From a virus (Duplodnaviria; Caudoviricetes), in the IMG/VR virus record IMGVR_UViG_3300046615_000208, positions 107,753-171,752 of that record: a stretch of 64,000 nt of DNA. One strand, written 5' to 3'. Below the pieces are notes generated by a model. It did not search any database. It had not been told where the DNA came from and saw nothing but the letters and a program-made list of their open reading frames with translations. Position 1 is the stretch's first letter. Each line of letters opens with the position of its first letter. Of this stretch, positions 2,730-28,000 are shown piece after piece. A program made the position numbers and the translations under genes.

Positions 2730-2997
2730 CGTAGCCGCCTCTCAGGCCAGTAACCACGTATCCGACCAAGCTGTTTACTTCCTTGCCTCGCGGAACCATC
2801 CCACGGCGCTTCAAAAAGCTGTAGACAAACGGATAGGACCGAGACACGCTCTCATCTGAGAACATCACGGCGTCCGCAGCAGCCAGAACCCTTTCCATGC
2901 GGATTGTCGCAGAAGCGACGAGGTCCTGATCCTCCCATTCATCGATCTTCGGGTGCCCAGCTAAAAGAGCAGCCCTTAGTCTCGCTTCATCGTTCAA
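2719..2997 (-). CDS. hypothetical protein
   Basis: ORF, AAGGAG RBS, TTG start overlapping the upstream stop. Confidence 0.65.
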   Translation of the reverse strand: MNDEARLRAALLAGHPKIDEWEDQDLVASATIRMERVLAAADAVMFSDESVSRSYPFVYSFLKRRGMVPRGKEVNSLVGYVVTGLRGGYDVG

Positions 2998-3347
2998 ATC
3001 TTATCTCCTTCTAGAGTTGGTGCAAGCCAGCAGTTGCAGTTACGGCGTACGCTTACGGGACGCCCCCGGTAGAGTTCCCGGATTGGGAAGTAGACAGCGC
3101 ATCGGTGGTCGTGCACGTCCCACTGCCGTTCGAAGGTGAGGATGATGGCTCGCTGGGTTTCAAAGTCCTCCGGAAACGGCTCGGAGAGCCAGCAGTCACA
3201 CTGCGGGAAGATGTACACGTCGTACGTTTCGCCGGTTAGTTCGTTCGTGGGCGGGATGTAACGCTTCCGGGTGTTGCAGGAGGACTGGTGGAAGCCTTTG
3301 GCGTTGAATTCTAGTAGCAGTAGCTCAGCGCGTTCCTCAGGACTCAC
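2994..3347 (-). CDS. protein with two H-x3-C...C-x-C-W-L metal-binding repeats
   Basis: HQSSC...CDCWL and HDHRC...CNCWL. Confidence 0.65.
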   Translation of the reverse strand: MSPEERAELLLLEFNAKGFHQSSCNTRKRYIPPTNELTGETYDVYIFPQCDCWLSEPFPEDFETQRAIILTFERQWDVHDHRCAVYFPIRELYRGRPVSVRRNCNCWLAPTLEGDKI

Positions 3348-3514
3348 CTAAGCCCCGCCAAAAACTTATCCACCCTAGCCAGTCGCTTTCGGGAATTCCT
3401 GATCTCAGCCAGTGCCCGAAGCTCGCCAACAGAGCACTTTGCAAGATGTTTGTCGAAGAACTCCCGGCTCAGCACCATAAGCTCTTCATCGTAATCGGAC
3501 CTGTAATCAGCCAT
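3344..3514 (-). CDS. 56-aa hypothetical protein (not in the ORF track)
   Basis: Manual translation MADYRSDYDEELMVLSREFFDKHL...LAGLR*; fills the gap; stop overlaps the next GTG. Confidence 0.6.
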   Translation of the reverse strand: MADYRSDYDEELMVLSREFFDKHLAKCSVGELRALAEIRNSRKRLARVDKFLAGLR

Positions 3515-3752
3515 TCTCTCTCGCTTTCTTCTTCAAATCAAAATGATACCAGCGCACCTTGCGCCAGAAGATAGACCAGACCGGTCTGGAACCACCGGGT
3601 TGAGTCGCAACATCGGCGTACCAAAGCTGCCCACACGTTTTACACTCGATGACAGCCCCGTGAGCTAGGCTAGGAGGCTCGAATGAGACGTAGAGGCCCG
3701 CATCACACTTGTGTGGCGGCTGGGGCTTCTCAGGGGCATACAGCGTGATCAT
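3507..3752 (-). CDS. WYH-family Zn-binding microprotein, copy 1
   Basis: HKC...IECKTC...W...WRKVRWYH; start MITLYAP after GGAG. Confidence 0.75.
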   Translation of the reverse strand: MITLYAPEKPQPPHKCDAGLYVSFEPPSLAHGAVIECKTCGQLWYADVATQPGGSRPVWSIFWRKVRWYHFDLKKKARENG

Positions 3753-3753
3753 G

Positions 3754-3999
3754 TCAGGCAATTTTACTCCTAAGAACCCAGTGATACCAGCGCAGCTTTC
3801 GCCATTTATTCTTTCTACAGTCTCCGTAATCCACATGTGCCCACCAGCGCTGTGCACACTGGTCACACTCCATGATGGTGTACGGTTCTACCGGGAGATA
3901 CTGGTTCAGCACGTTTAGTTTCGGCAGCTTGCACCGATGCTCGGCTGCCGGGTTGTACAGCAGTACCATTTCGTTCTGGTCAAATTCTCTCGATTCCAT
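3754..3999 (-). CDS. WYH-family Zn-binding microprotein, copy 2
   Basis: HRC...MECDQC...WW...WRKLRWYH; AAGGAGG RBS. Confidence 0.8.
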   Translation of the reverse strand: MESREFDQNEMVLLYNPAAEHRCKLPKLNVLNQYLPVEPYTIMECDQCAQRWWAHVDYGDCRKNKWRKLRWYHWVLRSKIA

Positions 4000-4029
4000 T
4001 ACTTCCTCCTTTTCTTTAGTCCACCCTCC

Positions 4030-4058
4030 ATACTACCTGATTTTAACGACAAAAGCAA
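4030..4058 (-). promoter_or_regulatory. sigma-A promoter for the first WYH pair
   Basis: TTGCTT-17-TAGTAT. Confidence 0.6.
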
Positions 4059-4065
4059 GCCCACC

Positions 4066-4257
4066 CTAGAGGGGCCAGCGCTTGAGGAATTCCTCGTCTG
4101 AGACGATTTCCCACTCCGGTTCCCCTGCCCTGCAAGCCTCACAGTAGTCATTGGGTTGAGGCCCAACTACCACAGTCTCTCCGGATACGTAAACGTCGAA
4201 TTCGTTGCACTCGGTGCAGATCGACCGGGAGCCATCTGCTGTTCGTATGTGTGTCAT
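4066..4257 (-). CDS. small zinc-ribbon protein
   Basis: CTEC...CEAC; AAGGAGG RBS before MTHIRT. Confidence 0.65.
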   Translation of the reverse strand: MTHIRTADGSRSICTECNEFDVYVSGETVVVGPQPNDYCEACRAGEPEWEIVSDEEFLKRWPL

Positions 4258-4270
4258 CTTTCCTCCTTCC

Positions 4271-4642
4271 TTACAGGTCTTTGGCGATGCCACGGAGACG
4301 GTATGAAACATCCCGCATAGTCATCCGCAGTCGCAACATGTTCGTTTCCGTATTGGCGTCAGTCTCAAGCCTATCGGCAAGCTTGACAAGCTCAGCAGCA
4401 AGGCCCGGTTCTACATGTTCGGCGTTGATGTCCGTGTAGATGGCCTCATTGATCTGAGCGGTAAGAACCGCTTCATGTTCTGCATCGGCAATGAGTTCCA
4501 GCGTGTCGTACGTCACCAACACAACCTTATTCTTCTCCCGGTCGAAGACCACATCCACCTTGGACGGGTCAAACTGGTCGGAGATTACGGTACCGAACTT
4601 CTGCCGGTTGTAGAGGACCCGGTCGCCCTTCTTGAACCTCAT
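4271..4642 (-). CDS. hypothetical protein with N-terminal SH3/KOW-like barrel
   Basis: FKKGDRV...FGTV...VDVVFD pattern. Confidence 0.65.
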   Translation of the reverse strand: MRFKKGDRVLYNRQKFGTVISDQFDPSKVDVVFDREKNKVVLVTYDTLELIADAEHEAVLTAQINEAIYTDINAEHVEPGLAAELVKLADRLETDANTETNMLRLRMTMRDVSYRLRGIAKDL

Positions 4643-4818
4643 GAGCCTAGGCTTTCTGAGCACTTGGTGCAGGTTACCTCGGTGACCTTGTGTTCCACGG
4701 CAGTAGGGTCCGGGACCTGCTTGCCACACAGGGTGGCCCACTTGTCCGTCTTGTAGTCCATGACGAACGCGGCATGGACCCTTCCGTGAAGGTGTACCGG
4801 GAAGATTGTTGTAGGCAT
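4639..4818 (-). CDS. small Cys/His metal-binding protein
   Basis: VHAA...TLCG...VTCTKC; AAGGAG RBS. Confidence 0.65.
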   Translation of the reverse strand: MPTTIFPVHLHGRVHAAFVMDYKTDKWATLCGKQVPDPTAVEHKVTEVTCTKCSESLGS

Positions 4819-4858
4819 CTCTCTTTCTCCTTTTCTATAGGCTTGATTGATGCCCCCT

Positions 4859-4887
4859 AGCATAGATGCACGGCCACCGTATGTCAA
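4859..4887 (-). promoter_or_regulatory. sigma-A promoter
   Basis: TTGACA-17-TATGCT; -35 overlaps the upstream TGA stop. Confidence 0.7.
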
Positions 4888-5138
4888 GCGCCCCGCACCG
4901 CATCGATTGCTACGCCGTAGAGTCTCCGCAACTCGCGAGCCTCAGCGGCTTCCTGTTTGGCGAGATCGCGGCTGGCTTTAATGGTGGGCAGACTCGGCAG
5001 GTCGTGTTCCTGATTAAAGATCATGTCTGCGTCGTACCGGTTCACCGTGGTGTCCCAGCGTTTTACCTCGGCGTTGGCTTGCTTCTCATCCGCTTCGAGG
5101 GCTATCAGCAGCTTCTCTTTGGGTGTTCGCTTTGACAC
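4884..5138 (-). CDS. hypothetical protein
   Basis: ORF, AAGGAG RBS, GTG start. Confidence 0.7.
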   Translation of the reverse strand: MSKRTPKEKLLIALEADEKQANAEVKRWDTTVNRYDADMIFNQEHDLPSLPTIKASRDLAKQEAAEARELRRLYGVAIDAVRGA

Positions 5139-5227
5139 GGTGACTCCTTTCGGACCAATAGGGATCAGAAGACCCTTCCCGGAGGAAGGGCCTTCTGTGG
5201 CGGATACCGCCTACCTGATACAGTATA

Positions 5228-5257
5228 ATCCTACCGCACTGACCCGGCATCTGTCAA
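5228..5257 (-). promoter_or_regulatory. sigma-A promoter
   Basis: TTGACA-18-TAGGAT. Confidence 0.6.
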
Positions 5258-5258
5258 C

Positions 5259-5609
5259 TCACCGGATCGGCATGATCCTTACCGGGTACGCCCCGGCAGG
5301 CCGTACAAATACTGCCTGCCTGTTCCCGTACCGTACCTGCTGAAGCTCCACAGAGTATACAGCAATCTTGTACCCGAGGTCCGCAAGCGAATCGTCATAC
5401 CCGGCAAACCATTCCTCCAGAGCGCAAAGAGTAGGGAACCCGCACACCTCGTCCGGGTAGATTCCATCCAGCATGGGGTCGTCAAAGGGGTCCGGGTGTT
5501 CCTCATCCCCATGGACGGCAAACATGTGTGCCAGTTCTTCGTTGTCTTCGTTACCTGCATACGGCCCCGCACCGTGTGCAGACTCTACCCTAAACATAGA
5601 GACCTTCAT
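5259..5609 (-). CDS. hypothetical protein
   Basis: FRVE...GPY...P.P..D...CGF...L..WF pattern; start MKVSMF. Confidence 0.7.
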   Translation of the reverse strand: MKVSMFRVESAHGAGPYAGNEDNEELAHMFAVHGDEEHPDPFDDPMLDGIYPDEVCGFPTLCALEEWFAGYDDSLADLGYKIAVYSVELQQVRYGNRQAVFVRPAGAYPVRIMPIR

Positions 5610-5763
5610 TTTCCCTGCCAATCCATAATTACAGCCTTGCTATTTATGCCGGGACAAAAATATGGGCGCACCACTGGGGCACGCCTTCAACCCGCACCGT
5701 GTGTCCCGCACGGTGCATGTCTATGTAGTTGTCCGACCGGCAAGCTGCTTTACCGGATCAGGG

Positions 5764-5979
5764 TTACTTCTTCTTCAGGAGGGCCTTGCCGTGGCTGCTG
5801 CGTGTCGGCTCGGAGAGCCGTACCGCATCACCTATAAAACAGTAGGCCGCACCTTCATTCGTACTGACCCGCACCGTATCGCAGTTCAGTTGCCTGTCCT
5901 CTACCACGCCTTCAAGCCCCTTATAGGGTCCAGCCGTGATCCGTACCGCATCTCCAACATCAATAATGGCTTGGTTCAT
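5764..5979 (-). CDS. KOW-motif protein
   Basis: GDAVRITAGPYKGLEGVVE is a NusG/L24-type KOW motif; leaderless promoter upstream. Confidence 0.75.
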   Translation of the reverse strand: MNQAIIDVGDAVRITAGPYKGLEGVVEDRQLNCDTVRVSTNEGAAYCFIGDAVRLSEPTRSSHGKALLKKK

Positions 5980-5985
5980 ACCTAG

Positions 5986-6014
5986 AGCTTACCCGGCACT
6001 ACTTGGTTTATCAA
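5986..6014 (-). promoter_or_regulatory. sigma-A promoter, leaderless
   Basis: TTGATA-17-TAAGCT-6 nt-ATG(5979). Confidence 0.7.
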
Positions 6015-6060
6015 ATCGATACGCATTATGACTACTTGACTTGACTTTTGGCACTACTTG
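5998..6060. repeat. three direct repeats of ACTACTTG
   Basis: Copies start at 5998, 6031 and 6053; two extend to GGCACTACTTG. Confidence 0.7.
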
Positions 6061-6132
6061 TGTTTAGGATCAAAAACCCCGGAATCTAGCGGTTTTTAGG
6101 GTGCCACCACAGACGATTTCAAAAATAGGGGG

Positions 6133-6161
6133 TTGCATAGTGTTGCGTGTCGGCGTAGTGT
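6133..6161 (+). promoter_or_regulatory. sigma-A promoter for the DGQHR gene
   Basis: TTGCAT-17-TAGTGT. Confidence 0.65.
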
Positions 6162-6245
6162 TTGAGTCATGGAAAGCAGCCGACCAAGGAGGCCTACCAG
6201 ACAACAAACAAATCAATCAAACACCAACCGAAAGGAAATCATATC

Positions 6246-7667
6246 ATGACTACCAAGACCCTCACTCGCGGACAGAAGGCAGCAGCAACCCGTCGAAGCA
6301 ACATCGAGAAGGCCGAGGCCATGGCAGCAGCGGTAAAGGAAGACGCGGCAGCAGCCCTCGCGGCGGAAAATCTTCCGAAGGGTTCAGCCGCTCCCAAGGT
6401 CGATCCGATGTTCTCGGACGAAATCGACCCCAACGAGAACATCGACACCGAAGGTCTTCCCGAGGAAGTCGAGGACGAACTGGACGAGGAAGACACGCCG
6501 GAAGTGCAGAAGGAATTCCGGATGCAAATCCTGACGGAGTTCGTCCCCGGTAAGGCGGCACTCGCCACACTGACACCGCAGGCTCTGAAGTCTCTGGCGT
6601 TCGTCTCCACCTACAACACCATCGATGACCAGTCCTCCAGCCCACGCCAGCACGGCTACCAGCGCGATCCGCTGGACGCACGGTTCCCCGCCATCGGTCG
6701 GTACTTCGCCCAGCAGGAGGGTGACGGGGTCCACACCCACGCACACCTGATCACGCCGATCATCGCGTCGGTGCGCGTCTACTCCGACAAGGAGCGGGAA
6801 GAGTTCGTCAAGCTCTTCAACGAGGGCGACATCCACGCGATCCACGAACGCTTCGGTCGCTCGGTGGTCTCCATCGTGGACGGCCAGCACCGAACCGGAG
6901 GCCTGTTCTGGGCTTGGGAGAAGGAACACGACTTCAACCCGGACGTGCCGGTGATGCTGTACTTCGGACTCCGCTACGCCGATGAGGCCACGCTGTTCGA
7001 TGACATCAACACCAACCAGCGCAAGCTCCCCAAGGCGCTCATCGAGGCCACCAAGGTCCACATGGAGGCAGGCGAGAAGTCCCACGCCCAGACCATCCGT
7101 GAGGTTGCGTTCGACCTCGCACAGGACGGCGACTCTCCGTGGTACGGCCAGATCAACATGACCGGTGCACGCGACCCGGAGAAGCCCATCTCCTACGAGG
7201 GCCTGCGCCGTGCTACTGGCAACATGCTTCAGGAGAAGCTGATTGCCCGTCTGGAGCGGCAGGGGATGGCTCTGGACACGGTCGCCAAGAAGTACTGGGA
7301 GATGGTCGCTCGGGCCTGTGCCCCGGCATGGCAGGAGCGTCCGCGCATCGTCCGCACCGACGAGGGGACCGAAGAGGAACAGGTCAAGTACCGCCTGAAG
7401 GATTTGGCTGGCGTGGCATCCGTGTCGCGTGTCGGCTTCGACATCCTGAACACGGCACTGGATCAGTCCAAGACCGACGAGGACTTCTGGAGCGCTGTGG
7501 CCTCCATGGTCTCCAAGCTCGGCGTCATCGACTGGGAGAAGCGTCCGGGCAACCCTTGGACCGCTGCCGGGGCCGGTTTCGCAGGAATGACCGGCCTCTA
7601 CAAGATGCTCTACGAACTGGTGTACTTGGACAAGTCGCCCGGTGTCTCTGCCGAAGCTGAAGAGTAG
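6246..7667 (+). CDS. DGQHR-domain protein (DndB/ParB-like superfamily)
   Basis: GYQR, IVDGQHR and LFDDINTNQRKL motifs; GAAAGGA RBS before MTTKT; strong C/G third-position bias. Confidence 0.85.
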   Translation: MTTKTLTRGQKAAATRRSNIEKAEAMAAAVKEDAAAALAAENLPKGSAAPKVDPMFSDEIDPNENIDTEGLPEEVEDELDEEDTPEVQKEFRMQILTEFVPGKAALATLTPQALKSLAFVSTYNTIDDQSSSPRQHGYQRDPLDARFPAIGRYFAQQEGDGVHTHAHLITPIIASVRVYSDKEREEFVKLFNEGDIHAIHERFGRSVVSIVDGQHRTGGLFWAWEKEHDFNPDVPVMLYFGLRYADEATLFDDINTNQRKLPKALIEATKVHMEAGEKSHAQTIREVAFDLAQDGDSPWYGQINMTGARDPEKPISYEGLRRATGNMLQEKLIARLERQGMALDTVAKKYWEMVARACAPAWQERPRIVRTDEGTEEEQVKYRLKDLAGVASVSRVGFDILNTALDQSKTDEDFWSAVASMVSKLGVIDWEKRPGNPWTAAGAGFAGMTGLYKMLYELVYLDKSPGVSAEAEE

Positions 7668-7673
7668 CCCAGT

Positions 7674-7714
7674 AGGAAAGGCCCCGGTCCCCCCAAAGGA
7701 CCGGGGTCTTTCTC
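7674..7714 (+). terminator. intrinsic terminator, possibly bidirectional
   Basis: GAAAGGCCCCGGTCC / GGACCGGGGTCTTTC stem right after the stop codon. Confidence 0.8.
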
Positions 7715-7719
7715 TGGCC

Positions 7720-7835
7720 AAAAGAAGAGGCCACCCGGCCCGCACGTTGGGGGACTAGTCAAACCGGGTGACCTCATCAATCGGGGGGTTCCGACACCCA
7801 CCTACCGCAACAAAGCCGTTCGCTCCTGTGTTGGT
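7720..7835 (-). ncRNA. candidate ~115-nt small RNA with two C-rich loops
   Basis: Own promoter TTGTGA-17-TAGAAT (7870-7842), hairpin with a CCCCCC run, 14-bp stem with a CCCCC loop, then TTCTTTT; no credible ORF. Confidence 0.5.
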
Positions 7836-7902
7836 GATAAGATTCTAGCAAGAGGTGAGTCACCTCACAATAGGTGTACGGAAGTTAATAGGAGGTTGAC
7901 AA

Positions 7903-8127
7903 ATGGCAAGGCGTCAGGTAGTACACAGCACATGCGACAGGTGCCACAAGGAAGTGACCACTCCGATGACCCCGAACAGACGGGGAGACGAGTTTCAGGT
8001 TCCGGATGGCTGGATACACATCTCGGCCAACGGTAGGAACACTACCCTCTTCGAGATGGACCTGTGCGACGACTGCAAGGGCATCGTAATCGAGGCGGCA
8101 GGACTGGCAGACCGGGTTCACTCCTAG
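7903..8127 (+). CDS. zinc-finger protein CDxC...GW...DLCxxC, paralog 1
   Basis: CDRC, VPDGWIH, DLCDDC; GGAGG RBS. Confidence 0.75.
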   Translation: MARRQVVHSTCDRCHKEVTTPMTPNRRGDEFQVPDGWIHISANGRNTTLFEMDLCDDCKGIVIEAAGLADRVHS

Positions 8128-8133
8128 AGGGAA

Positions 8134-8182
8134 GAAGACCCCCACAAGATAACCGGGGAAGGTTGATTGAGTGGGGGTCTTC
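8134..8182. terminator. long hairpin between the paralogous zinc-finger genes
   Basis: GAAGACCCCCAC / GTGGGGGTCTTC stem with inner AACC/GGTT stem. Confidence 0.55.
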
Positions 8183-8195
8183 CTGTGGGTAAGCT
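8167..8195 (+). promoter_or_regulatory. sigma-A promoter
   Basis: TTGAGT-17-TAAGCT. Confidence 0.55.
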
Positions 8196-8231
8196 TACGC
8201 TGTCACTACCGGGCACGGAAGGGGTTGAGTT

Positions 8232-8456
8232 ATGTACCAGCAGGTGGTACGATATGAATGCGATAGTTGTCACAAGATCGTGGAAGAGCCTATGGCTACC
8301 GGCTTCAAGTGGCGGGGCAGGGTTCCCAAGGACTGGCTACACGTGGATGGCTTCACAAACAGCCATAGTGTGTTTAAGCTAGACCTCTGCGATGAGTGCA
8401 AAAAGGAAGTACTGGAGTTCACCCAGAGCGACCAGAGCAAGAACGTCGAGGAATAG
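8232..8456 (+). CDS. zinc-finger protein, paralog 2
   Basis: CDSC, VPKDWLH, DLCDEC; same length (74 aa) as paralog 1. Confidence 0.75.
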   Translation: MYQQVVRYECDSCHKIVEEPMATGFKWRGRVPKDWLHVDGFTNSHSVFKLDLCDECKKEVLEFTQSDQSKNVEE

Positions 8457-8464
8457 GAGGATAC

Positions 8465-8707
8465 ATGTTTGTTGTAGCACGTGTCAAAGCAGATCGGGTC
8501 CATGAGGTAGAGGCATACCTGTACAACGGCCAGAATATTGTCTCTGAGCCGGTGCTGAATGAGTTCGGTTCGGCCATGGTCATTGTGGAGTCCGCCCACG
8601 GTCTGGCGGGTAAGATGCTGGCTGACAGGCTGGCATCAGGCCTCATGGGAGCGAGTCAGTTCCAGACCCGCGAAGAGGCAGACGCATATATCCAGTCGGA
8701 GATGTGA
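8465..8707 (+). CDS. hypothetical protein
   Basis: AGGAGG RBS before MFVVAR. Confidence 0.7.
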   Translation: MFVVARVKADRVHEVEAYLYNGQNIVSEPVLNEFGSAMVIVESAHGLAGKMLADRLASGLMGASQFQTREEADAYIQSEM

Positions 8708-8748
8708 CGGGTAGGGGCCGGGAAGTCCGACCCCTACCGGTTACCCGA
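8708..8748. terminator. hairpin between convergent operons
   Basis: GGTAGGGG / CCCCTACC inverted repeat. Confidence 0.55.
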
Positions 8749-8768
8749 TGAGACCGTCTCGTATCCGT

Positions 8769-9029
8769 TCATCGCACGTACTTCCTCAGCCTGAAGTGGT
8801 ACCAGCGTACCTTTGACCAGTGTACATGGTACTCCTTTGGGTCTAGGTATTTGTCCTTACCTCCGGTGGTAAACACCGAGACCCACCAGAAGATGCCGCA
8901 GTCATTGCACTCGATGATCGTGCGGTCCTTGTAGCTTGGCATAGTACCGCCTGCATAGTTTTTAGGGCGACACTGGTGTGGCGGGATTGGGTCATCCGGA
9001 ATGTGAACTGTCCTGTAGCGCTCGCTCAT
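8769..9029 (-). CDS. WYH-family microprotein, copy 3
   Basis: HQC...IECNDC...WW...WSKVRWYH; ATGA overlap. Confidence 0.8.
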   Translation of the reverse strand: MSERYRTVHIPDDPIPPHQCRPKNYAGGTMPSYKDRTIIECNDCGIFWWVSVFTTGGKDKYLDPKEYHVHWSKVRWYHFRLRKYVR

Positions 9030-9268
9030 CGGTGCAGGTTCCTTTGCCACTTGAAGTGGTACCACCTGAGCGGAATCCACTTGTTGCTGTAAGAGGCGTC
9101 TTTGTAGGTCATAGCAACCCACTTTTGCGCACATTCCTCACACTCGATGATTGTTTGCCACCAGATTTTGTTGTCATCGTGGCGGTTGCGGGTGAGGTCC
9201 GGGAGATCGCACTTGTGTTCCTTTGCTGCGACTTCTCGCGGGTCATATAGTACTACATACTTAGCCAT
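9026..9268 (-). CDS. WYH-family microprotein, copy 4
   Basis: HKC...IECEEC...W...WIPLRWYH; TAATG overlap. Confidence 0.8.
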   Translation of the reverse strand: MAKYVVLYDPREVAAKEHKCDLPDLTRNRHDDNKIWWQTIIECEECAQKWVAMTYKDASYSNKWIPLRWYHFKWQRNLHR

Positions 9269-9531
9269 TATCTTCCTTTCCTTGTCGCTACGATGAACTG
9301 GAGCCGCATGTGGTACCACTTGAGGGGCTTCCACTCGTTCTTGTGGTCGTAATCTTCTCTGGCCCAGATAATGGCGTACCACTTCTTGGCACACTGTTCG
9401 CATTCGATCACAGCGCGGTACTCAAACTCTCCACCATCGTTCCCACTGATCTTAGGCGGGTCGCACTTGTGCTTTGCTGCCATCTCCGTCTTGGGGTTGT
9501 AGAGTGTCACATAGCTCTTGCTATTTTCCAA
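9268..9531 (-). CDS. WYH-family microprotein, copy 5
   Basis: HKC...IECEQC...WY...WKPLKWYH. Confidence 0.8.
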   Translation of the reverse strand: MENSKSYVTLYNPKTEMAAKHKCDPPKISGNDGGEFEYRAVIECEQCAKKWYAIIWAREDYDHKNEWKPLKWYHMRLQFIVATRKGR

Positions 9532-9760
9532 CGATGGCCTTCCTCATCCTGTAATGGTACCAGCGTACCCGCGTCCAAATTCGTGTGTCATCGATCCACT
9601 TTATCCTCACGTACCAGTGCCTGCCGCAGTCTTTGCAGCACACGATACGGCCCTCTACGGAGTTCCCTGCCCCTCTTCGGCCCTTATCGAAACACCGGTG
9701 CTTGTCGAAGACCTCCTTACGATCTACGACAATCTCAAAGTCATCTAGGGTTCTAGCCAT
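9521..9760 (-). CDS. WYH-family microprotein, copy 6
   Basis: HRC...VCCKDC...WY...WTRVRWYH. Confidence 0.8.
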   Translation of the reverse strand: MARTLDDFEIVVDRKEVFDKHRCFDKGRRGAGNSVEGRIVCCKDCGRHWYVRIKWIDDTRIWTRVRWYHYRMRKAIVGK

Positions 9761-10088
9761 TGGATTCCTCCGCAGCTACAACTGCACGGCCATAGGAAAT
9801 TGCGTTGTTCATGATCTCCATGATATTCGAGAAGTCAACTTCTGTCAACTCACAGAAAAACTCTACAGTGTCGATCCCGCCAGCAGACATAGGCGCACGC
9901 AGAGTCATCGCGAAAAGCTGCATCTCCATCGCCAATCCTGCGGCTCCGTATCCGCCGTCTTCGATGTCAAAGGTCTCGCGCCACAGTGCGGTCTCTCCAC
10001 GCACGAGCGAGCGGGCAATCTCGACAGCCTTCAGGTGTCGATCCCATTGTTCCTGTTCATTCTCCATGTATTTCCCTTCCTTGTTCAT
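9753..10088 (-). CDS. hypothetical protein heading the WYH operon
   Basis: ORF directly after a leaderless promoter. Confidence 0.7.
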   Translation of the reverse strand: MNKEGKYMENEQEQWDRHLKAVEIARSLVRGETALWRETFDIEDGGYGAAGLAMEMQLFAMTLRAPMSAGGIDTVEFFCELTEVDFSNIMEIMNNAISYGRAVVAAEESNG

Positions 10089-10094
10089 AACACA

Positions 10095-10122
10095 AGCCTA
10101 CCCTGACCTAACCAAATGTCAA
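10095..10122 (-). promoter_or_regulatory. sigma-A promoter, leaderless, overlapped by an inverted repeat
   Basis: TTGACA-16-TAGGCT-6 nt-ATG(10088); CTACCCTGA/TCAGGGTAG arms at 10098-10132. Confidence 0.7.
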
Positions 10123-10135
10123 ATCAGGGTAGACG

Positions 10136-10423
10136 CTAACTCTCTCCGCGTTCCAAAGCAATCATCGAGACCGCCATTTTATGCATGTCAAACGAACTTA
10201 CTCCTGCAAAGTCACAGTACCGATCCGCCATGAGGAATGCTGCACCCCAGTATCCGCGCTTCATAGCGTATGCCGTCACGTAAAGCTGGAGGGCAATACC
10301 AGTCACAGACACACCGTCTTCGTCAGATTCCAGATTTTCTTCTTTCAGAATCTCCTGTATGTCCTTCAGCACTGCCGCACACGCCTTCTGCCTTGCCAGC
10401 AGTTCTTCTCCCGACTCACTCAT
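10136..10423 (-). CDS. hypothetical protein
   Basis: ORF, ATGA overlap. Confidence 0.65.
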   Translation of the reverse strand: MSESGEELLARQKACAAVLKDIQEILKEENLESDEDGVSVTGIALQLYVTAYAMKRGYWGAAFLMADRYCDFAGVSSFDMHKMAVSMIALERGES

Positions 10424-10743
10424 TGTCTACCCACTCGCTCGTTGTTATTGCCCGACTCTGTCTCTTCCTCGGCCACAGGCGTAAACTTCTTCGCCCGTTC
10501 GATCTCGAACTCGCGCAGAGTCATCTTGGTCTCAACCAAGTGAATCTTCCCACTGCGTAGCGTGATCTTCAGTCCTCGGTCGTAAGGGTGAGGGCCAGCA
10601 TTCATGTAAATCTGGGGACGACGATCAAACCGCGTCACAGATTCAATCTCATCTACATTCAAGAGTACATTGTTTTCCTCCGAACTCACGCTCTCCAGAA
10701 GGACCATCCGGTCTGCTGGTAGTTTAATGTCCGGCGTACTCAT
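10420..10743 (-). CDS. hypothetical protein
   Basis: AAGGAG RBS before MSTPDIK; LLNVDEIESV motif. Confidence 0.65.
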   Translation of the reverse strand: MSTPDIKLPADRMVLLESVSSEENNVLLNVDEIESVTRFDRRPQIYMNAGPHPYDRGLKITLRSGKIHLVETKMTLREFEIERAKKFTPVAEEETESGNNNERVGRQ

Positions 10744-10876
10744 CAGGCTCCTTGTGCCATGAGGTCCGCTCGGAACCCAATACCTCCAGAATCGCCGCCC
10801 GACGATAGTCAAACGAACTCCAGAACCCCGGATGCATCAGTTCCTCGATCTTGGCAAGCTTCTCTTCTGCCGTCAT
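10724..10876 (-). CDS. small hypothetical protein
   Basis: MTAEEKL start overlaps the upstream stop. Confidence 0.5.
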   Translation of the reverse strand: MTAEEKLAKIEELMHPGFWSSFDYRRAAILEVLGSERTSWHKEPDEYAGH

Positions 10877-11271
10877 TTTGTCCTTGCCCTTTCCCTTGCC
10901 GCCAGTATCCAACGTGCCGCTGTATACCGGGATTCCTTTTGTAGTTTAGCTGCCAGATGACTGGGCGGTTTGGGGTCCTCATATTTCCGTCGATCCCAGC
11001 CGAACTTGATCTCTAGACGCTTATACAGAGGTGCCCAAGCCCATCCGGCCCATGCAATGTTGTCATGGGTAGAGTACCATTTACGGGCGCACTCCGGGCA
11101 AACAAAGGTTGAACCAAACGGAGTGTACGACCTTGGTGTGGGGCAGTCGCACCCCCATTCCTCGTCGCGCAGTGTCTCCCGTCTAAAGTACCACAGGTCG
11201 TAGAAAAAAGCAACCGCCTGTAGAATACTAAGACCTACAAAGCCCCAGAGTGCTAGGTTTGCGATGACCAT
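10873..11271 (-). CDS. membrane-anchored Zn-binding protein, likely divergent WYH relative
   Basis: N-terminal hydrophobic helix, then CDC..P...FVCPECARKWY...WAPL. Confidence 0.65.
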   Translation of the reverse strand: MVIANLALWGFVGLSILQAVAFFYDLWYFRRETLRDEEWGCDCPTPRSYTPFGSTFVCPECARKWYSTHDNIAWAGWAWAPLYKRLEIKFGWDRRKYEDPKPPSHLAAKLQKESRYTAARWILAARERARTK

Positions 11272-11364
11272 TCCTTCTCCTTCCACATGTCGTCAAGCAG
11301 TTCGCAGTCTGCGGTGCTAGCTCTCCCGTAGAAGTCAAAGAACTCCCCCGAATAAATTAGTTCT

Positions 11365-11562
11365 TCAGTCTTCCAGTCCGTGGACAATGATGTATTCCCA
11401 TTCTGCTAGGCTAATATCTGAATCTTTGAAAAGCTCTTCTTCCTCGATGGAAGTCAGCCGGAATTCATCCCAGTCCTGCGAGCAAATGGCGCACAGGTCA
11501 TACAGTCCATCCGAATATCCGGGATCAGCAGGTCCGCCACACTTACAGCACTCTAGGTCCAC
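11365..11562 (-). CDS. small zinc-finger protein
   Basis: CCKC...LCAIC. Confidence 0.6.
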   Translation of the reverse strand: MDLECCKCGGPADPGYSDGLYDLCAICSQDWDEFRLTSIEEEELFKDSDISLAEWEYIIVHGLED

Positions 11563-12033
11563 TTAGAAATCCACTGGAAAAATCGCCGTAACCTTCAACT
11601 GCACGCCAAATCGCAGGCCATCCGGAGTCTCACCGTAGATTTCTACCGTGTCATCTTCTGTAATCTCCGACTCATCGAACTCAAAGTCCGAGAATCCTCC
11701 GAGGAAGTCCAGTTCTTTGAGGATTGTACGGGCATCAGGGAGCTTACGGTCCCGAAGCTGCTGCGGGGTCTTCACTAGGCGGACATTGTCCTTGCGTGCT
11801 GCAACCCAGCTATCCTGAGTGGTGTACCCGGAATAGACCTCGGAGTAATACTCCGGATCGTCGTTGAACGGGGCGTAATCATCCACGATGAACTTCTGAC
11901 CGCTATAAACCCGGTCTCCGCTGTCCTCCAAGGCCTCTGACTCGATGACCTCAACCAGTGAGCCAATAGGGATGATGTTTTCTTTAGTCATTTCTTTGCC
12001 CTTCCTGTTAGAATGAACCAAAAGGTCACCCAT
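11563..12033 (-). CDS. hypothetical protein
   Basis: ORF in minus-strand run; start may be 11991. Confidence 0.7.
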   Translation of the reverse strand: MGDLLVHSNRKGKEMTKENIIPIGSLVEVIESEALEDSGDRVYSGQKFIVDDYAPFNDDPEYYSEVYSGYTTQDSWVAARKDNVRLVKTPQQLRDRKLPDARTILKELDFLGGFSDFEFDESEITEDDTVEIYGETPDGLRFGVQLKVTAIFPVDF

Positions 12034-12049
12034 TTATCCTTTTTTCTTC

Positions 12050-12319
12050 TCAATTTTTCCCAACCAATGCCTCGATTGGGATGTCGATGCCGCTTTTTGT
12101 GGCTTCAATCATCAGGTCGCGAAGCTCTGTGTTCTGTTTTTGAAGCTTCGCGGCTCTGGCAGTCGCATATTCAAGCTCCGAAATGGCAGTAGCAAGGATC
12201 GAGTCGTCAGACTGCTTCAGCTTCTCCATCGTTTCGATCTGATCCACTAATGCTCGGATGAGGTCTCCATCACTGCTGAATTCAGCCCTGACACGTGCCT
12301 CATGTAGGTTTACTGCCAT
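12050..12319 (-). CDS. coiled-coil hypothetical protein
   Basis: ORF with GAAAGG RBS. Confidence 0.7.
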   Translation of the reverse strand: MAVNLHEARVRAEFSSDGDLIRALVDQIETMEKLKQSDDSILATAISELEYATARAAKLQKQNTELRDLMIEATKSGIDIPIEALVGKN

Positions 12320-15205: not shown

Positions 15206-15463
15206 ATGACAAAGTTGCCTAAGAAGCAAAAGAAGTACATTGATATCCGTCTCCATCTCTCTTCAGAGATTGAAGACTTCGGCCCCGACGACACCTACGA
15301 ACACTTCGAGATTGATGGCGTAGAGCGTATCAAGATCAAGGGTATCGAAGAGGACCAGCTTGACAACCTTGCAGAGACAGTGGCGCAGAGTGACCACTAC
15401 CAGATTTATCTGTTTGGTGCCGTAACCACGGCCCTCGATACGGAGGGCGTCCATGAGCTTTGA
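15206..15463 (+). CDS. hypothetical protein
   Basis: ORF in plus-strand run. Confidence 0.65.
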   Translation: MTKLPKKQKKYIDIRLHLSSEIEDFGPDDTYEHFEIDGVERIKIKGIEEDQLDNLAETVAQSDHYQIYLFGAVTTALDTEGVHEL

Positions 15464-15905
15464 GATCGTGAAGGGTGATCTTTTCCACCCTGTCTTCGAG
15501 TTTGACGGCATCTGTCAGGGAGTGAATACTCTGGGTGTAATGGGTGCAGGGATCGCTGTACCGTTCCGTGAGACGTGGCCTTCGATGTATAATGAGTACA
15601 GGCGTAACTGTAAGAGGTTCGGTGCGTCCCTAGCAGGGTCACTCCATACGTGGTACGACCGGGAATCTGACCTCGTCATTTTCAACCTGTTCTCGCAGAT
15701 CGAACCGGGCCGAAATGGTGACTACATTCTGCTCCGCAGGGCTGCTGTACAGCTTGTCCTCGAAGCCGAATCGCGAAACCACGCACGTGTCGGACTGCCG
15801 TGGATTGGTTGCGGTATTGCTGGTCTTGCCAAGCACAATGTGGAAGAGATTCTACATGAAGTGTTTGACGACTCTCCGGTGCATTTTGTACTAGTGGAGC
15901 AGTAG
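15453..15905 (+). CDS. macrodomain protein (Poa1p/DarG-like ADP-ribose hydrolase)
   Basis: KGDLF, VNTLGVMGAGIA, IFNLFSQ, LPWIGCGIAGL. Confidence 0.9.
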   Translation: MSFEIVKGDLFHPVFEFDGICQGVNTLGVMGAGIAVPFRETWPSMYNEYRRNCKRFGASLAGSLHTWYDRESDLVIFNLFSQIEPGRNGDYILLRRAAVQLVLEAESRNHARVGLPWIGCGIAGLAKHNVEEILHEVFDDSPVHFVLVEQ

Positions 15906-19127: not shown

Positions 19128-20036
19128 ATGATCACATACAAGGCAAAGACAAGTAACGGAGAGATCATCAAGTCCGCTCTCTCCCCTTTCACCTTCCCAG
19201 CAGGGGAAGCGCACACAAAGCGCGAAGAGCGCCGCGAACTGGAACCCACCGAGATCGCAATCCTCCAGTTCTCTCCCGAATCGATCCACGATGACCTGTT
19301 CCAGCTTGCCATGTGGAGCAATACGGTCTTCAGTGAATCCGGTAAGATCAAGCGTGTTGCAATCATCCCTTACTTCCCCGGTGCACGTGCCGACCGTGGT
19401 ACTCCTTTCGGCGCTGAAGTCTACGTGGAGTTCGTCTACTCCCTGATGCTCGATCAGGTCATCACCTACGACCCACACTCTGAGGTCTACGTTAAGCTTC
19501 TCCAGAATGATCCGGCCCTGACGGTCACTCCCGTCTACCCGCACGAGACTCTGGGGACCATGACTGCACAGATCACTATGCCCAACGTCTATGACGGTGT
19601 CATTGCACCCGACAAGGGTGCAAAGGTGCGTGCAGGCGCTGTGGCTCGTGAACTAAATCTGCCTCTGTACACTGCCACCAAGACTCGTGACTTCGAGACA
19701 GGCAAGCTCAACGGTTTCGGTATGGAGCAGACTCTTCCCAATGATGGTCTTTACCTTATCGTGGACGACATCTGCGACGGTGGTGGTACCTTCGTCGGAC
19801 TGGCTAACCACCTTCAGGAGACCACAGAGAACATCCGACTTGACTTGTACGTCTCTCACGGTGTATTCTCTAAGAGTGCCCTAGAGAACCTCGAAAAGGC
19901 ATTCTCCAAAATCTTCACCACAGACTCCTATGACCCGCATCGGAGCCTGACCACCCGAGTTTCCGAATTCCAAGATGACTCTACGTGTTTCCACCGTATT
20001 GACATCATTCGGCCCCTACTTCAGAAAGTGAACTAA
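19128..20036 (+). CDS. prs: ribose-phosphate pyrophosphokinase-like protein (probable NARP1 ADPR-PP synthetase, Adps)
   Basis: FPAGE, PYFPGARADR, DPHS, APDKGA, IVDDICDGGGTF, VSHG. Confidence 0.9.
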   Translation: MITYKAKTSNGEIIKSALSPFTFPAGEAHTKREERRELEPTEIAILQFSPESIHDDLFQLAMWSNTVFSESGKIKRVAIIPYFPGARADRGTPFGAEVYVEFVYSLMLDQVITYDPHSEVYVKLLQNDPALTVTPVYPHETLGTMTAQITMPNVYDGVIAPDKGAKVRAGAVARELNLPLYTATKTRDFETGKLNGFGMEQTLPNDGLYLIVDDICDGGGTFVGLANHLQETTENIRLDLYVSHGVFSKSALENLEKAFSKIFTTDSYDPHRSLTTRVSEFQDDSTCFHRIDIIRPLLQKVN

Positions 20037-20039
20037 GAC

Positions 20040-21551
20040 ATGTTTCTCCTTAACCCGCTTCTCGCAACCGACTCCTACAAGCTCTCCCACATCTTCATGT
20101 ACCCGGATGGTCTGGAACATGTAGAGTCCAACTACACCAACCGCAAGTCCCGCGTCGAGGGAATCAACCATGTCGTCCAGTTCGGGCTTCAGGCGTGGCT
20201 GAAGGACCTGACCGAGTCCTACGAGCGCTTTTTCGCTGCGGACAAGGACAAGGTCATCAACGAATACAAGGACAATGTGGCCACCTTCGTCTCCCCCGGC
20301 TTCACGCTGGCACACGTCGAGGCCCTGCATGACCTTGGCTACCTCCCGATCCAGTTCTCCGCAGCCCCGGAAGGCTCCCTTGTTCCGATTGGCGTTCCGT
20401 CAATCCTGATCAAGTCCACGCACAAGGACTTCGCATGGCTGGTAAACTACCTCGAATCCGACCTCTCGGCAGGTGTGTGGCACCCGTCCACCGTTGCCAC
20501 CCTTGCGTGGAGCCTTCGTCGCGTCTTCGAGAAGGCCGCACGAGACACTGGCGGAGCCATGGAAGCTGTTGACTTCCAAGTCCACGACTTCTCCTACCGT
20601 GGGCAGGTCAACCGTGAAGCTGCCATGGCCTCCGGTGCCGCACACCTTCTCTCCTTCAAGGGTTCAGACGGTGTTCCGGTTGTGCCTTGGGTTAATTACT
20701 ACTACCCCGGAGAAGACAACGGCGACATCGCGTACTCTGTTCCGGCAACGGAACACTCTGTGATGTGCCTTGGTGGCGAAGAGGACGAACTCGAAACGTT
20801 CCGCCGCCTGCTGAAGCAGTTCCCGACCGGTATCCTCTCCATCGTGTCCGACACGTGGGACTTCTTCAAGGTTCTCACCGAGTACCTTCCGGCACTCAAG
20901 GACGAAATCCTTGCTCGTGACGGCAAGCTCGTCATTCGCCCGGACTCCGGCGATCCCGCAGATATCATTTGCGGTACGGTAGGTATGCGTTTCCCGCGTC
21001 TCTCAAAGGATGCGACAGACTCCGCAAAGGAAGCTAAGGGTGCCATGGAAATCCTTGCAGACCTGTTCGGTACCACGACCAACGAGGCCGGATTTGAAGA
21101 ACTCGACTCCCACATCGGCCTGATTTACGGCGACGGCATGTACAAGGAGCGCATCGAGGACATCAACGCCCGCCTCAAGGCCAAGGGCTTCGTCTCCACC
21201 GTCTGGGTTTCCGGTATCGGCTCCTTTCAGTACCAGATGAACACCCGTGACACCTTCGGCTCGGCTGTCAAGGCTACCTTCGGCATCGTCAACGGAGAAG
21301 GCCGCAACGTCCAGAAGAACCCGAAGACTGACGATGGCACCAAGAAGTCCGCCAAGGGCCGACTGGCTGTCCTGCATCAGGCCAACGGCAACCTCTACCT
21401 CGTACAGGATGCCACGGATGAGCAGATTGCGAACTCCGTCCTCAAGCCCGTATGGGAAGACGGCAAGTTCCTGAAGGAGTACTCCTTCAACGAATCCCGC
21501 GAAAACCTGAAGCGCACCACCGGAATCCTCGAAAGGAATGGCAGCATTTAA
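20040..21551 (+). CDS. nadV: nicotinamide phosphoribosyltransferase-like protein (probable NARP1 Namat)
   Basis: TDSYKLSH, HDFSYRG, SVPATEHS, VSDTWD, IRPDSGDP, IYGDG, KNPKTDDGTKKSAKG. Confidence 0.93.
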   Translation: MFLLNPLLATDSYKLSHIFMYPDGLEHVESNYTNRKSRVEGINHVVQFGLQAWLKDLTESYERFFAADKDKVINEYKDNVATFVSPGFTLAHVEALHDLGYLPIQFSAAPEGSLVPIGVPSILIKSTHKDFAWLVNYLESDLSAGVWHPSTVATLAWSLRRVFEKAARDTGGAMEAVDFQVHDFSYRGQVNREAAMASGAAHLLSFKGSDGVPVVPWVNYYYPGEDNGDIAYSVPATEHSVMCLGGEEDELETFRRLLKQFPTGILSIVSDTWDFFKVLTEYLPALKDEILARDGKLVIRPDSGDPADIICGTVGMRFPRLSKDATDSAKEAKGAMEILADLFGTTTNEAGFEELDSHIGLIYGDGMYKERIEDINARLKAKGFVSTVWVSGIGSFQYQMNTRDTFGSAVKATFGIVNGEGRNVQKNPKTDDGTKKSAKGRLAVLHQANGNLYLVQDATDEQIANSVLKPVWEDGKFLKEYSFNESRENLKRTTGILERNGSI

Positions 21552-25079: not shown

Positions 25080-28000
25080 ATGGCTTGGGGTAAGAATCAA
25101 AACTGGAAGTGGCAGCTTCGCGATAGCAAGGGCCGCTGGATTGAAATGGGCCGTGGGGTAAAGTGGTACTCCCCGTCATTGGGCCGCGAGGTCTCCGGAA
25201 CAGTCGTAGGGCAGAAGGGTAAGAACGCAATTGTCAATCTTACCTCTGAGCCTGCCAATGCTAAAACCGGTAAGCCACAGCAGGTATCCGTTAAGGGTAG
25301 TGACATTGAGGTCATTCAGAACAAGGCTACCCTGAACCCAACAGCCGACAAGGCCATTAGTGCCACCGATGCGATGCTGAAGCAGGGCCAGCGCACGGCT
25401 GGTCCTAAGGCCTCAGTACCTACTGAGGTAGAGAACGCGCCTGCGCCTGTTGCTAACAAGAAGTACAACGAAGCAGGCCTGACTCCTGATGAGCAGAAGG
25501 CTGTTGACTTCCAAGAGAAGAAGGCAAAGCAGGCGGCAGACAAGGGCGACCTTGACGCTGCTGACCGCTATGAAACTGCCGCTGCCAAGACCCGTAAGAT
25601 CGGTGAAGACCGCATCAAGAACGGTGAAGGCGACACTCCTGCCGAGGATACACCCGCCGCTGGAGAAACACAAGGGCCAGCTACGTCTACCAAGGCACCT
25701 ACACGTAACGCCGACATTGAGCGCGACCTCGGTCTTCTGGAGCAGGAAGCAGAAGACATCAACAACCTCGCGGACGAAGATGAGAAGGCTTCTGCCCTCG
25801 AAGCTGCACAGTACGACCTAGTCAACGACGCTGGCGACGATGTCACCATGCGCCTAGCTGAGGGTGACGACGAAGGCAGCTATGATGTAGCTGTGGAGGA
25901 CGCAGACGGCAAGGAACTAGGTCGCGTACCTATGTCAGAGAGCGCTGGCGAGCGTATCGACACGGCTAAGGCTGTGCGAGAGCTTGCCAACGGTCGTACC
26001 CCTGCCAAGGCCACCATCAGCGACGAACCCGTAGACGAGTCTCCAGAGGCTTCGGAAGCTCCCAAGGCCAACGTACCGCTGGCCGAACTTGAGAAGCAGG
26101 CCAAGGCTGATGGGGACACTGTCCTCTACCACGGTGGTCTACCTGAGGGCACGACCCTCGATGGCATCGACCTCAACCGCAATGGAACCCAGCAGAACAA
26201 GCGTGGGCAGTCCTTCGGAGGTTTCTATCTCACTGACGAGTCCTCCAAGAGTTGGTCTGACAAATACGCCATGGAGCGTAACGGTGTCATGCACGGCTTC
26301 GCTATCGACAAGAACGCCCGAATCGATGACCGTGGAAAAGAGCAGATCGACCGCATCTCCGCAGAGGACCGTGCCAAAGCTGCCGAGACCTCCGATATCA
26401 TCAAGGGTAGGGACCTTCTCGGGCGTACCCAGTATGTCATCCTCAACAAGGATGTCATCAAGGGTGTTGGTGAAACCAACCTCAAGACGGACAAGGCCCC
26501 TGAGGCAACTCCTGAGGTCCCTGAGGTGGCACCAGAGGCCCCTGATGCGGCTCCTGCCGACTCCGGACTGCCCGAGTTTGATCCTGTCACCATTGCTCTG
26601 CCTAGGGACGCGTTCAAGACAGCCGACAAGATTGCAGTCGGTGACCGTCTTTTGACCACTGCCCATGCTAATAACGGCAAGGAAATGCCTGTCAGCAGGA
26701 CCGATACCAATATTGCCAACGGCGAGACGGTTGACCTGACCGGTAAATCTGCTACAGTTACTGGTGTGCAGAAGATCATGGGACAGAACAAGACCTCGCA
26801 GGGTAAGGTTGTCGGCAGCAGGGTTGCCCTACAGTACTCCGATGGCCGAACCGAATCTATGGACCTCTACGCGAACCGTGGCGGTAGTAACTCTAAGGGT
26901 GGTGTCTTCATTGACTCCCCTGAGTTCCGTGCTGCCCACATCGATAAGGCACCTGAAGAAGCGCCAAAGGATGAAGCACCGGTCGATGGTGGCAATGCTG
27001 GAAGCCCTGTTGCCAAGCCTGAACCTGTTGTGGCAGAGAGTGTTGAAGATAAGCTCAAGGCTGCTGGAGTTGCCCGCACCGAACCTGTCGCCCTTCCGGG
27101 TGAGAAGTTCGCTCCGACGCGCCAGCAGCAGGACATCATCGACTCGGTCATGGCTGGGAAGAACACCGCAGTACAGGCTCTCGCCGGTTCCGGTAAGACC
27201 TCCACACTGGAAGCACTTGCCAAGCGTATTCAGGCACAGTACCCGGACAAGAAGATTGCGTACATCGCATTCAACCGTTCGGTTAAGCTTGAAGCTGAAG
27301 GCCGCATGCCGTCCAACGTTGAGTCCAAGACTCAGCACGGTCTGGCATATGGTTGGGCACCGAAGTGGATGAAGGACCGCTCCAATGATACCGGCTCGCT
27401 TCGTCGTGGTGATGATGTTGCAGGGTTCTTGGGCATCCGCGAGACCATCCGTCCAAAGGATGGAGAGCCTATGTCTGTCAAGGAACAGGCACTCGCCGCC
27501 ATGCGTACGGTTGACACCTTCGCAAACAGCGCTGAGGATGTTCCGGATGCCTCCCACATGCCTGAGAAGATCAAGGCTATGGGTCCTGAGGTTGAAGCTG
27601 CCGTTCTCGCGTCTGCTGCTAAGATTTGGGAGGACCTCCAGAAGCCTGATGGTAAGATGCGCTTCTCCCTTGACCACATGCGTAAGCAGTGGGCGCTGAC
27701 CAAGCCCGACCTGTCCAAGGCCGGTACGGGTCTGTCCCGTCCTGCTGATATCATCTTCATGGATGAGGCTCAGGATACACCTAAGGTCATGGCTGCGCTC
27801 ATGGACCACCAGACAGCCCAGAAGGTTGTCGTTGGTGACTCCAACCAGAACATCTACTCGTCCTTTACTGGGTCCATCGACTACATGTCGCAGGTCCAGA
27901 AGGACATCGAACTGCCGCTGACCAAATCATGGCGTTTCGGACCGGCTGTTGCTGACATCGGTAACCGTTTCCTCCAGCTTGCAGAGTCGCCTCACCGTGT

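Follow-up and report, generated by a model that had tools for sequence, protein, structure and literature searches.

A stretch of 64 kb was analysed (hereafter, the window), which forms the last part (positions 107,753-171,752) of a 171,752-bp virus record in IMG/VR (IMGVR_UViG_3300046615_000208) rated 99% complete. It carries six small genes whose products share a paired-knuckle zinc signature and a Trp-Tyr-His (WYH) triplet close to the C-terminus. Judged by its sequence, this is a previously undescribed family built on a known fold class, the zinc ribbon. We tentatively propose, with a probability of about 0.45, that the WYH proteins are a new family of phage microproteins that bind a host macromolecule early in host takeover, in which a basic helix would act as the anchor and two loops would provide specificity.

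Two coupled arrays of paralogous genes

All six genes lie on the minus strand, in one array of two and one of four, as described in the original prediction, and both the alignment and the profile place them in one family. Gene starts were set from orthologs, and the ratios of nonsynonymous to synonymous substitution rates (dN/dS) given for each copy refer to the corresponding gene of a syntenic 95-kb metagenomic contig, L009. The 2-array opens with copy B (3754-3999), which encodes 81 residues behind a strong AAGGAGGA ribosome-binding site (15 orthologs; dN/dS 0.22), and continues with copy A (3507-3761), 84 residues long from a TTG codon or 81 from the ATG at 3752, which matches the family hidden Markov model (HMM) with an E-value of 4e-30 (15 orthologs; dN/dS 0.29). 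The 4-array opens with copy F (9521-9760; 79 residues; 11 orthologs; dN/dS 0.21), followed by copy E (9268-9531; 87 residues from a TTG start; dN/dS 0.19), copy D (9026-9268; 80 residues; 19 orthologs; dN/dS 0.20) and finally copy C (8769-9029; 86 residues; 8 orthologs; dN/dS 0.27). When the six-copy profile is run against the whole 171,752-bp genome, exactly these six genes are recovered, with E-values from 1e-27 to 2e-33, and nothing beyond them scores better than 0.01.

Pairwise identity among the copies is 23-39%, and the alignment contains nine invariant positions, namely H13, C15, C36, C39, W43, W62 and W67-Y68-H69. The Leu-Tyr-x-Pro beginning previously noticed in four copies is borne out by the alignment, where it is found near the N-terminus of A, B, D and E (the genes at 3507, 3754, 9026 and 9268). 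Copies A, C, D and E contain exactly three Cys each, and the isoelectric points (pI) of the family proteins range from 8.7 to 9.9.

Translational coupling of the arrays is likewise confirmed, since overlapping stop and start codons can be read from the DNA at every junction. An upstream open reading frame (ORF) in the same orientation (9753-10088, minus strand, 111 residues) overlaps the start of copy F by 8 nt (ATGGCTAG); F runs 11 nt into E, the junction of E with D is TAATG and that of D with C is ATGA, and overlaps of 8 nt are present both between B and A and between A and the gene that follows it. Purine runs of the Shine-Dalgarno type (GGAGG or AAGGA) precede the starts. The upstream ORF has an ortholog of 81% identity in L009 and no match in Pfam or PHROG scans. 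The two arrays are not free-standing operons; each is a section of a longer series of small, coupled genes.

Coupling of this kind raises the question of whether the paralogs assemble into a hetero-oligomer, in which the conserved C-terminal end would form the contact between paralogs and coupling would equalise their amounts. The overlapping codons extend throughout both arrays, and the C-terminal block is the part most conserved between paralogs, both of which would suit such an assembly. However, overlaps of this type are the rule for all small genes of the region, relatives of the phage carry different sets of copies, and distant phages carry one copy only, and we consider an assembly of this kind quite improbable.

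A predicted His-Cys3 ribbon with a basic C-terminal helix

The AlphaFold model of copy E, built with a 79-sequence alignment, has a predicted local distance difference test score (pLDDT) of 85.2 and a predicted template modeling score (pTM) of 0.66. It contains a short helix (residues 13-18), three strands (41-43, 50-54 and 66-69) and a second helix (75-84). H21 and C23 lie ahead of loop 1, and C44 and C47 are located on the first hairpin; W51 belongs to strand 2 and W67 to strand 3, while W72-Y73-H74 is positioned between strand 3 and the C-terminal helix. The predicted fold is a His-Cys3 zinc ribbon with an aromatic mini-core of three Trp and one Tyr and an Arg/Lys-rich C-terminal helix, in which the H-x-C and C-x2-C motifs, contributing one His and three Cys, are predicted to hold one zinc ion. 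Both motifs are invariant in the 79 close members; in a broader set of 94 members, the two Cys of C-x2-C are invariant and the His and first Cys are at least 90% conserved. The common zinc scaffold that had been suggested for the six proteins therefore stands as one paralog family on a His-Cys3 signature, with ligands invariant in the alignment and zinc binding as such predicted. A homodimer prediction with zinc returned a score of 0.00, which is evidence neither for nor against dimerization.

The full motif is present in 143 of 168 proteins, and the first ligand is His in every one of the 143. Among these members, loop 1 comprises 13-38 residues and loop 2 comprises 8-23, and the 12 residues that follow the motif have a mean net charge of +3.2. 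In 26 of the 143, the last position of W-Y-H is not His but N, D, Q, M or S. The conservation of the WYH end was thus rightly noticed in the original prediction, but the idea that it is a dedicated docking motif fares less well: because the triplet sits between strand 3 and the helix in the model and its His is replaceable, it fits better as part of the aromatic mini-core and as a helix cap.

Orthologous groups, selection and turnover of copies

A word-based profile search retrieved 78 clusters, all of them unannotated and metagenomic, which form six groups, one for each copy of the window, with 8-19 members and 64-75% mean identity in each. A related-locus search seeded by a single protein returned the L009 contig only. 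Between the window and L009, the six pairs of copies show a dN/dS of 0.19-0.29 at a synonymous divergence (dS) of 0.43-1.09; the six copies are real genes under purifying selection. The notion that they are chance ORFs or decaying remnants devoid of function can practically be dismissed in view of HMM E-values down to 1e-33, the 78 homologous clusters in six orthogroups, the low dN/dS at a dS of 0.4-1.1 and the confident predicted fold.

The copies nevertheless change at the amino acid level about twice as fast as their surroundings, with a nonsynonymous divergence (dN) of 0.10-0.22 versus 0.02-0.12 for 15 neighbouring genes. When regions are pooled over the pairs of window and L009 copies, amino acid identity is 88% in the zinc core (dN/dS 0.08), 88% in the C-terminal block (dN/dS 0.21), 69% in loop 1 (dN/dS 0.21) and 55% in loop 2 (dN/dS 0.31), and inside each orthogroup conservation is lowest in the loops. 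The description of variable loops on a fixed scaffold is accordingly accurate: the copies diverge from one another in the two loops and at the N-terminus, and the loops are far from invariant between orthologs, loop 2 retaining 55% identity where the core retains 88%. At the resolution of pooled regions, the window-L009 comparison gives no sign of positive selection in the loops (dN/dS 0.21-0.31).

Copy number varies between phages, with six copies here, seven in L009 and four in the part that was read of L021, an 81.6-kb contig. L009 has arrays of five and two, consisting of F-E-D-C plus an extra type, and of B-A, whereas the portion of L021 contains a 4-array in which F and E are joined by a C-like copy and by another type, with no D copy. 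Since the content of the arrays differs between relatives, the family evolves by gaining and losing copies among close relatives, while each paralog is kept as its own orthogroup. The family tree, which is based on few columns, is mostly unresolved; it separates A-E from F, a split that is weakly supported.

These observations bear on one of the functions put forward in the original prediction, anti-defence. In such a repertoire, every paralog would counter another immune protein of the host, and the family would expand and contract in an arms race. Copy content does differ between close relatives, amino acid change is faster than in neighbouring genes and is concentrated in the loops, and the genome encodes other proteins of a counter-defence type (NAMPT with a phosphoribosyltransferase, a macro domain and Thg1, described below). 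On the other hand, dN/dS is well under 1 even in the loops, the six types are stable as orthogroups at 64-75% identity, which resembles six fixed functions more than rapid turnover, and distant phages have a single copy. Furthermore, general scans of Pfam, PHROGs, NCBIfam and PDB, which did not include a dedicated anti-defence library, revealed no similarity to any known anti-defence protein. We therefore rate a repertoire of this kind as rather unlikely.

Distribution of the wider family

An exhaustive profile search over 1.84 billion representatives yielded 100 proteins with an E-value of 0.001 or less, and for 16 of these it was 1e-10 or less. Proteins of the wider family are nearly all 65-100 residues long and carry the same signature, and no member is annotated. 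The named members are gp13 of the Gordonia phage Sixama and a hypothetical protein of Rhodococcus sp. B10 encoded on a phage-like 72.6-kb contig; all named or context-assigned members come from phages or prophages of Actinomycetota, and at one locus (L016) PE-PPE and DUF732 genes lie near the family member. Five metagenome or genome loci each have one family copy, located amid small uncharacterised genes in the non-structural region. Because the WYH gene is the only gene common to these five distant loci and that of Sixama, the family has no conserved phage-encoded partner and stands alone.

Neither copy E nor a second query protein (P0154) had a tblastn match in 50,697 phage records, and a final word-based search seeded with another alignment contributed little. 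No longer fused forms were found at E ≤ 0.001, which is weak evidence, as Sixama gp13 is itself such a form, and the literature yielded nothing relevant to the family. On the Rhodococcus sp. B10 contig (L011), the single WYH gene is followed, 2 kb downstream, by an RNA-repair cassette (8184-12240) comprising a TROVE/Ro-like protein, RlaP, a T4-type RNA ligase 1 and a PNKP-like kinase/phosphatase, a pairing that was not observed at other loci.

Candidate promoters of the arrays

A promoter had been predicted ahead of each array, and the two cases differ. Upstream of the 4-array, a sigma-70/sigma-A-like site, TTGACA-17-TATCAT, matches the consensus at 11 of 12 positions (9820-9848, minus strand); it is located about 60 nt upstream of copy F, within ORF 9753-10088, and is conserved in L009, although coding constraint could account for that conservation. 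Upstream of copy B, a hairpin followed by a promoter-like TTGCTT-17-TAGTAT can be discerned by eye in the 66-nt intergenic gap at 4000-4065 (minus strand); this candidate scores below the threshold of the promoter scan. The gap is likely a conserved regulatory element, since the window and L009 share about 60 nt of it without any change despite the divergence of the flanking genes (dS 0.3-0.5), which points to a functional element.

Across the genome, the pattern TTGAC[AT]-16/18-TANNNT occurs at 100 sites compared with 6.4 expected from shuffles, and the orientation of the sites follows that of the genes, being plus over 0-100 kb and minus in the block that holds the arrays. Minus-strand sites of the window include those at 4887, 5257, 8487, 9848, 10122 and 13532. 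With this excess of strand-matched sites, the phage seems to rely heavily on host-type promoters.

Such an abundance of promoter cassettes to be controlled is one of the attractions of the view that the WYH proteins regulate the phage's own programme as zinc-ribbon factors that bind DNA or RNA in a sequence- or structure-specific manner and switch the promoters or transcripts of the phage, with one paralog per regulon. The zinc ribbon, the conserved Arg/Lys helix and the basic pI would suit nucleic acid binding, and further small Cys-rich proteins are encoded nearby. However, the proteins have no helix-turn-helix or other known DNA-reading motif, no accompanying conserved DNA repeat was found, and the family is single-copy in distant phages whose genome organisation is very different. 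Among the alternatives weighed here, this is the one to which we give most credence, although we still regard it as doubtful.

Genomic setting and neighbouring genes

The virus is a large uncultured phage in a clade of large phages related to phages of Arthrobacter. Its NAMPT protein shares 70-76% identity with the NAMPT proteins of four ~194-kb phages of Arthrobacter globiformis (Racecar, Mimi, Talia1610 and Atuin), and the only DNA-level match of the region to a cultured phage is the DndB-like gene of Atuin (Atuin gp4); on these two grounds, the host is most likely a member of Actinomycetota. A 501-residue protein of the DndB/DGQHR type is encoded between the two arrays on the opposite strand (6162-7667, plus) and is 90% identical in L009.

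A phosphoribosyltransferase-domain gene (19128-20036, plus) is followed by the NAMPT/NAPRTase gene (20040-21551, plus), and the product of a further ORF (15453-15905, plus) shares 95% identity with that of an L009 gene that has a weak Macro-domain match. Together, these look like a set for NAD salvage and ADP-ribose handling, of the kind used by phages against NAD-depleting defences. A Thg1-like tRNA-His guanylyltransferase (748-1485, minus; Pfam E 1.7e-27) is encoded about 2 kb downstream of the 2-array and is kept in both L009 and L021. The region as a whole is rich in Cys-rich microproteins. A second pair of small paralogs (7903-8127 and 8232-8456, plus), of 74 residues each and 41% identical (E 4e-16), has the pattern C-x2-C...C-x2-C, and the first of them matches phrog_22311, of unknown function; others are encoded at 2994-3347, 4066-4311 and 11365-11562. 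The plus strand of the window also contains three giant ORFs, at 25080-32600 (2506 residues), 43946-49771 (1941 residues) and 52710-58748 (2012 residues).

A seventh, divergent and membrane-anchored copy had been postulated at what is here ORF 10873-11286 (minus strand, 137 residues). Its N-terminal hydrophobic helix and a similarity to the zinc half of the family are indeed found: hhalign gives a probability of 87% over 37 columns, confined to the zinc half, and the HMM E-value is 0.005-0.02 in a small search space. Membership in the family is another matter, as W-Y-H is lacking and W-x-P-L-Y-K-R takes the place of W-x-P-L-K-W-Y-H. The central block of the ORF (C-x-C, C-x2-C-x3-W-Y and W-x-P-L) is identical in three phages, and an AlphaFold model from three sequences was uninformative (pLDDT 56). 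The ORF may at best be a remote relative and is not to be counted as a seventh copy.

A working model of WYH function

In the model that we propose, the genes would be expressed by the host RNA polymerase from sigma-A-type promoters, within an early or host-takeover gene set. Each protein on its own would be a small binder of a host macromolecule common to Actinomycetota; its conserved basic helix would touch a polyanionic partner, either a nucleic acid or a nucleic-acid-handling machine, and the two variable loops together with the N-terminus would lend each paralog a different specificity. In favour of the model are the confident predicted fold, the purifying selection on separate orthogroups with variable loops, the gain and loss of copies, the basic pI and charged tail, the isolation of the WYH gene among six distant loci, the actinobacterial setting of its carriers, the excess of host-type promoter sites and the weak likeness of the zinc half to nucleic-acid-associated ribbons.

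Several points weigh against this proposal. No homology to any characterised protein points to a target, the similarities to other ribbons are generic and below significance, and the net charge of the proteins is just modestly positive. Because the dN/dS of the loops is only 0.21-0.31, relaxed constraint may account for loop variation as well as diversifying selection does. Early expression is suggested solely by promoter-like sequences and by gene neighbourhood, and the translational coupling of the paralogs would fit a hetero-oligomer too.

A more elaborate version of the host-binder proposal would treat the family as a modular binder scaffold, in which a rigid His-Cys3 ribbon carries two evolvable loops, duplication, loss and replacement of copies leave every actinophage with a set tailored against different host proteins, including those of defence, and a shared basic-helix anchor attaches all copies to the same host machine or nucleic acid. 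This extension is speculative, and we hold it to be distinctly unlikely.

The main reservoir of host-takeover and counter-defence activities lies in small phage proteins whose function is unknown, and very few actinophage families are understood. The WYH family is tractable in this respect, having a sharp signature, a confident predicted fold and a cultured member, gp13 of Sixama (grown on Gordonia terrae), that is open to knockout; in addition, the natural series of six to seven paralogs, which differ mostly in two loops, is well suited to specificity experiments. If the copies do target different host molecules, the scaffold would also attract attention as a very small binder stabilised by metal; if they are ordinary nucleic-acid-binding accessory proteins, one more family would be annotated.

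Comparison with known zinc ribbons and related phage proteins

That the family could not be recognised at first sight agrees with the curated libraries, none of which recognises it: Pfam, NCBIfam and PDB offer no family match and PHROGs only a weak link. Neither the six copies nor the seventh ORF nor the distant members have a family match in Pfam, PHROGs or NCBIfam, the Pfam ribbon families reaching 12-16 bits against thresholds of 24-31. Only generic ribbons came up in the PDB profile search, with an E-value of 6e-4 for 2nb9 and of 0.04 for eL43. Structural searches were similar in outcome, with no significant neighbour for Foldseek in PDB (best E 0.57) or in BFVD, nor for a wide VIA-align search (best Z 3.6; LysW Z 2.6), nor in the shape search of the ESM Atlas, where LysW clusters reached TM-scores of 0.35-0.43. 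The weak structural matches comprise LysW-type ribbons, Sixama gp13 and chromodomain-like folds of three strands plus a helix (chromodomain E > 0.5), and in sequence the zinc half weakly resembles the nucleic-acid-associated ribbons eL43, RPABC4 and TFIIS.

Three specific identities were considered and rejected. The LysW/ArgW carrier (NF041070, PF21344) matches copy F only, at 15.3 bits against a cut-off of 75. RbpA is an actinobacterial RNA-polymerase-binding zinc protein, and mimicry of it (PF13397) finds no match in the six copies at E ≤ 1 and none genome-wide, while the control genome scored; RbpA is also not among the PDB profile matches at E ≤ 10. Subunit D of the EcdD/BsdD decarboxylase (PF26358) gave a language-model feature match of 0.92, with 125 shared features where true members typically have 170, and no Pfam match; otherwise, feature searches of the protein atlas led only to unnamed viral and actinobacterial clusters.

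Compared with generic zinc ribbons of the rubredoxin-knuckle type, such as LysW/ArgW, eL43 (L37Ae), RPABC4/Rpb12, TFIIS and MJ0042-type fingers, the family has the same two knuckles, with four predicted zinc ligands, a small three-stranded sheet in the model and the x-x-C-x-x-C-G-x-x-W hairpin. Unlike them, it has H-x-C instead of C-x2-C in the first knuckle, and it adds a conserved N-terminal h-h-Y-x-P strand, three invariant Trp and a W-x3-R-W-Y-H block that leads into the basic helix. The only library family to recur is phrog_12343, of unknown function; 21 of the 94 broad members reach E ≤ 0.01 against it, the lowest value being 5.4e-6. In the window, D has an E-value of 0.007 and A one of 0.045, while the other four copies do not match. 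Its profile has 120 positions, and the matches cover the zinc half and mostly exclude the WYH end.

Among cultured phages, Sixama gp13 (QGF20192.1, 238 residues, hypothetical) is the only member in the 50,697 records and also the top structural match in BFVD. Its C-terminal ~75 residues bear the entire motif; unlike the copies of the window, it is single-copy and annotated as a fusion to an orphan N-terminal part of 158 residues to which no family could be assigned, although this fusion may be spurious, a long open frame having been annotated as one gene. The nearest cultured relatives of the virus, the Arthrobacter phages Atuin and Racecar, encode ribbon ORFs of 70-88 residues that share H-x-C...G-T-i-x-C-x2-C-x3-W with the family. 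These ORFs occur once or twice per genome rather than in arrays, lack both R-W-Y-H and the basic helix, and cover only positions 7-67 of the 101-position family profile.

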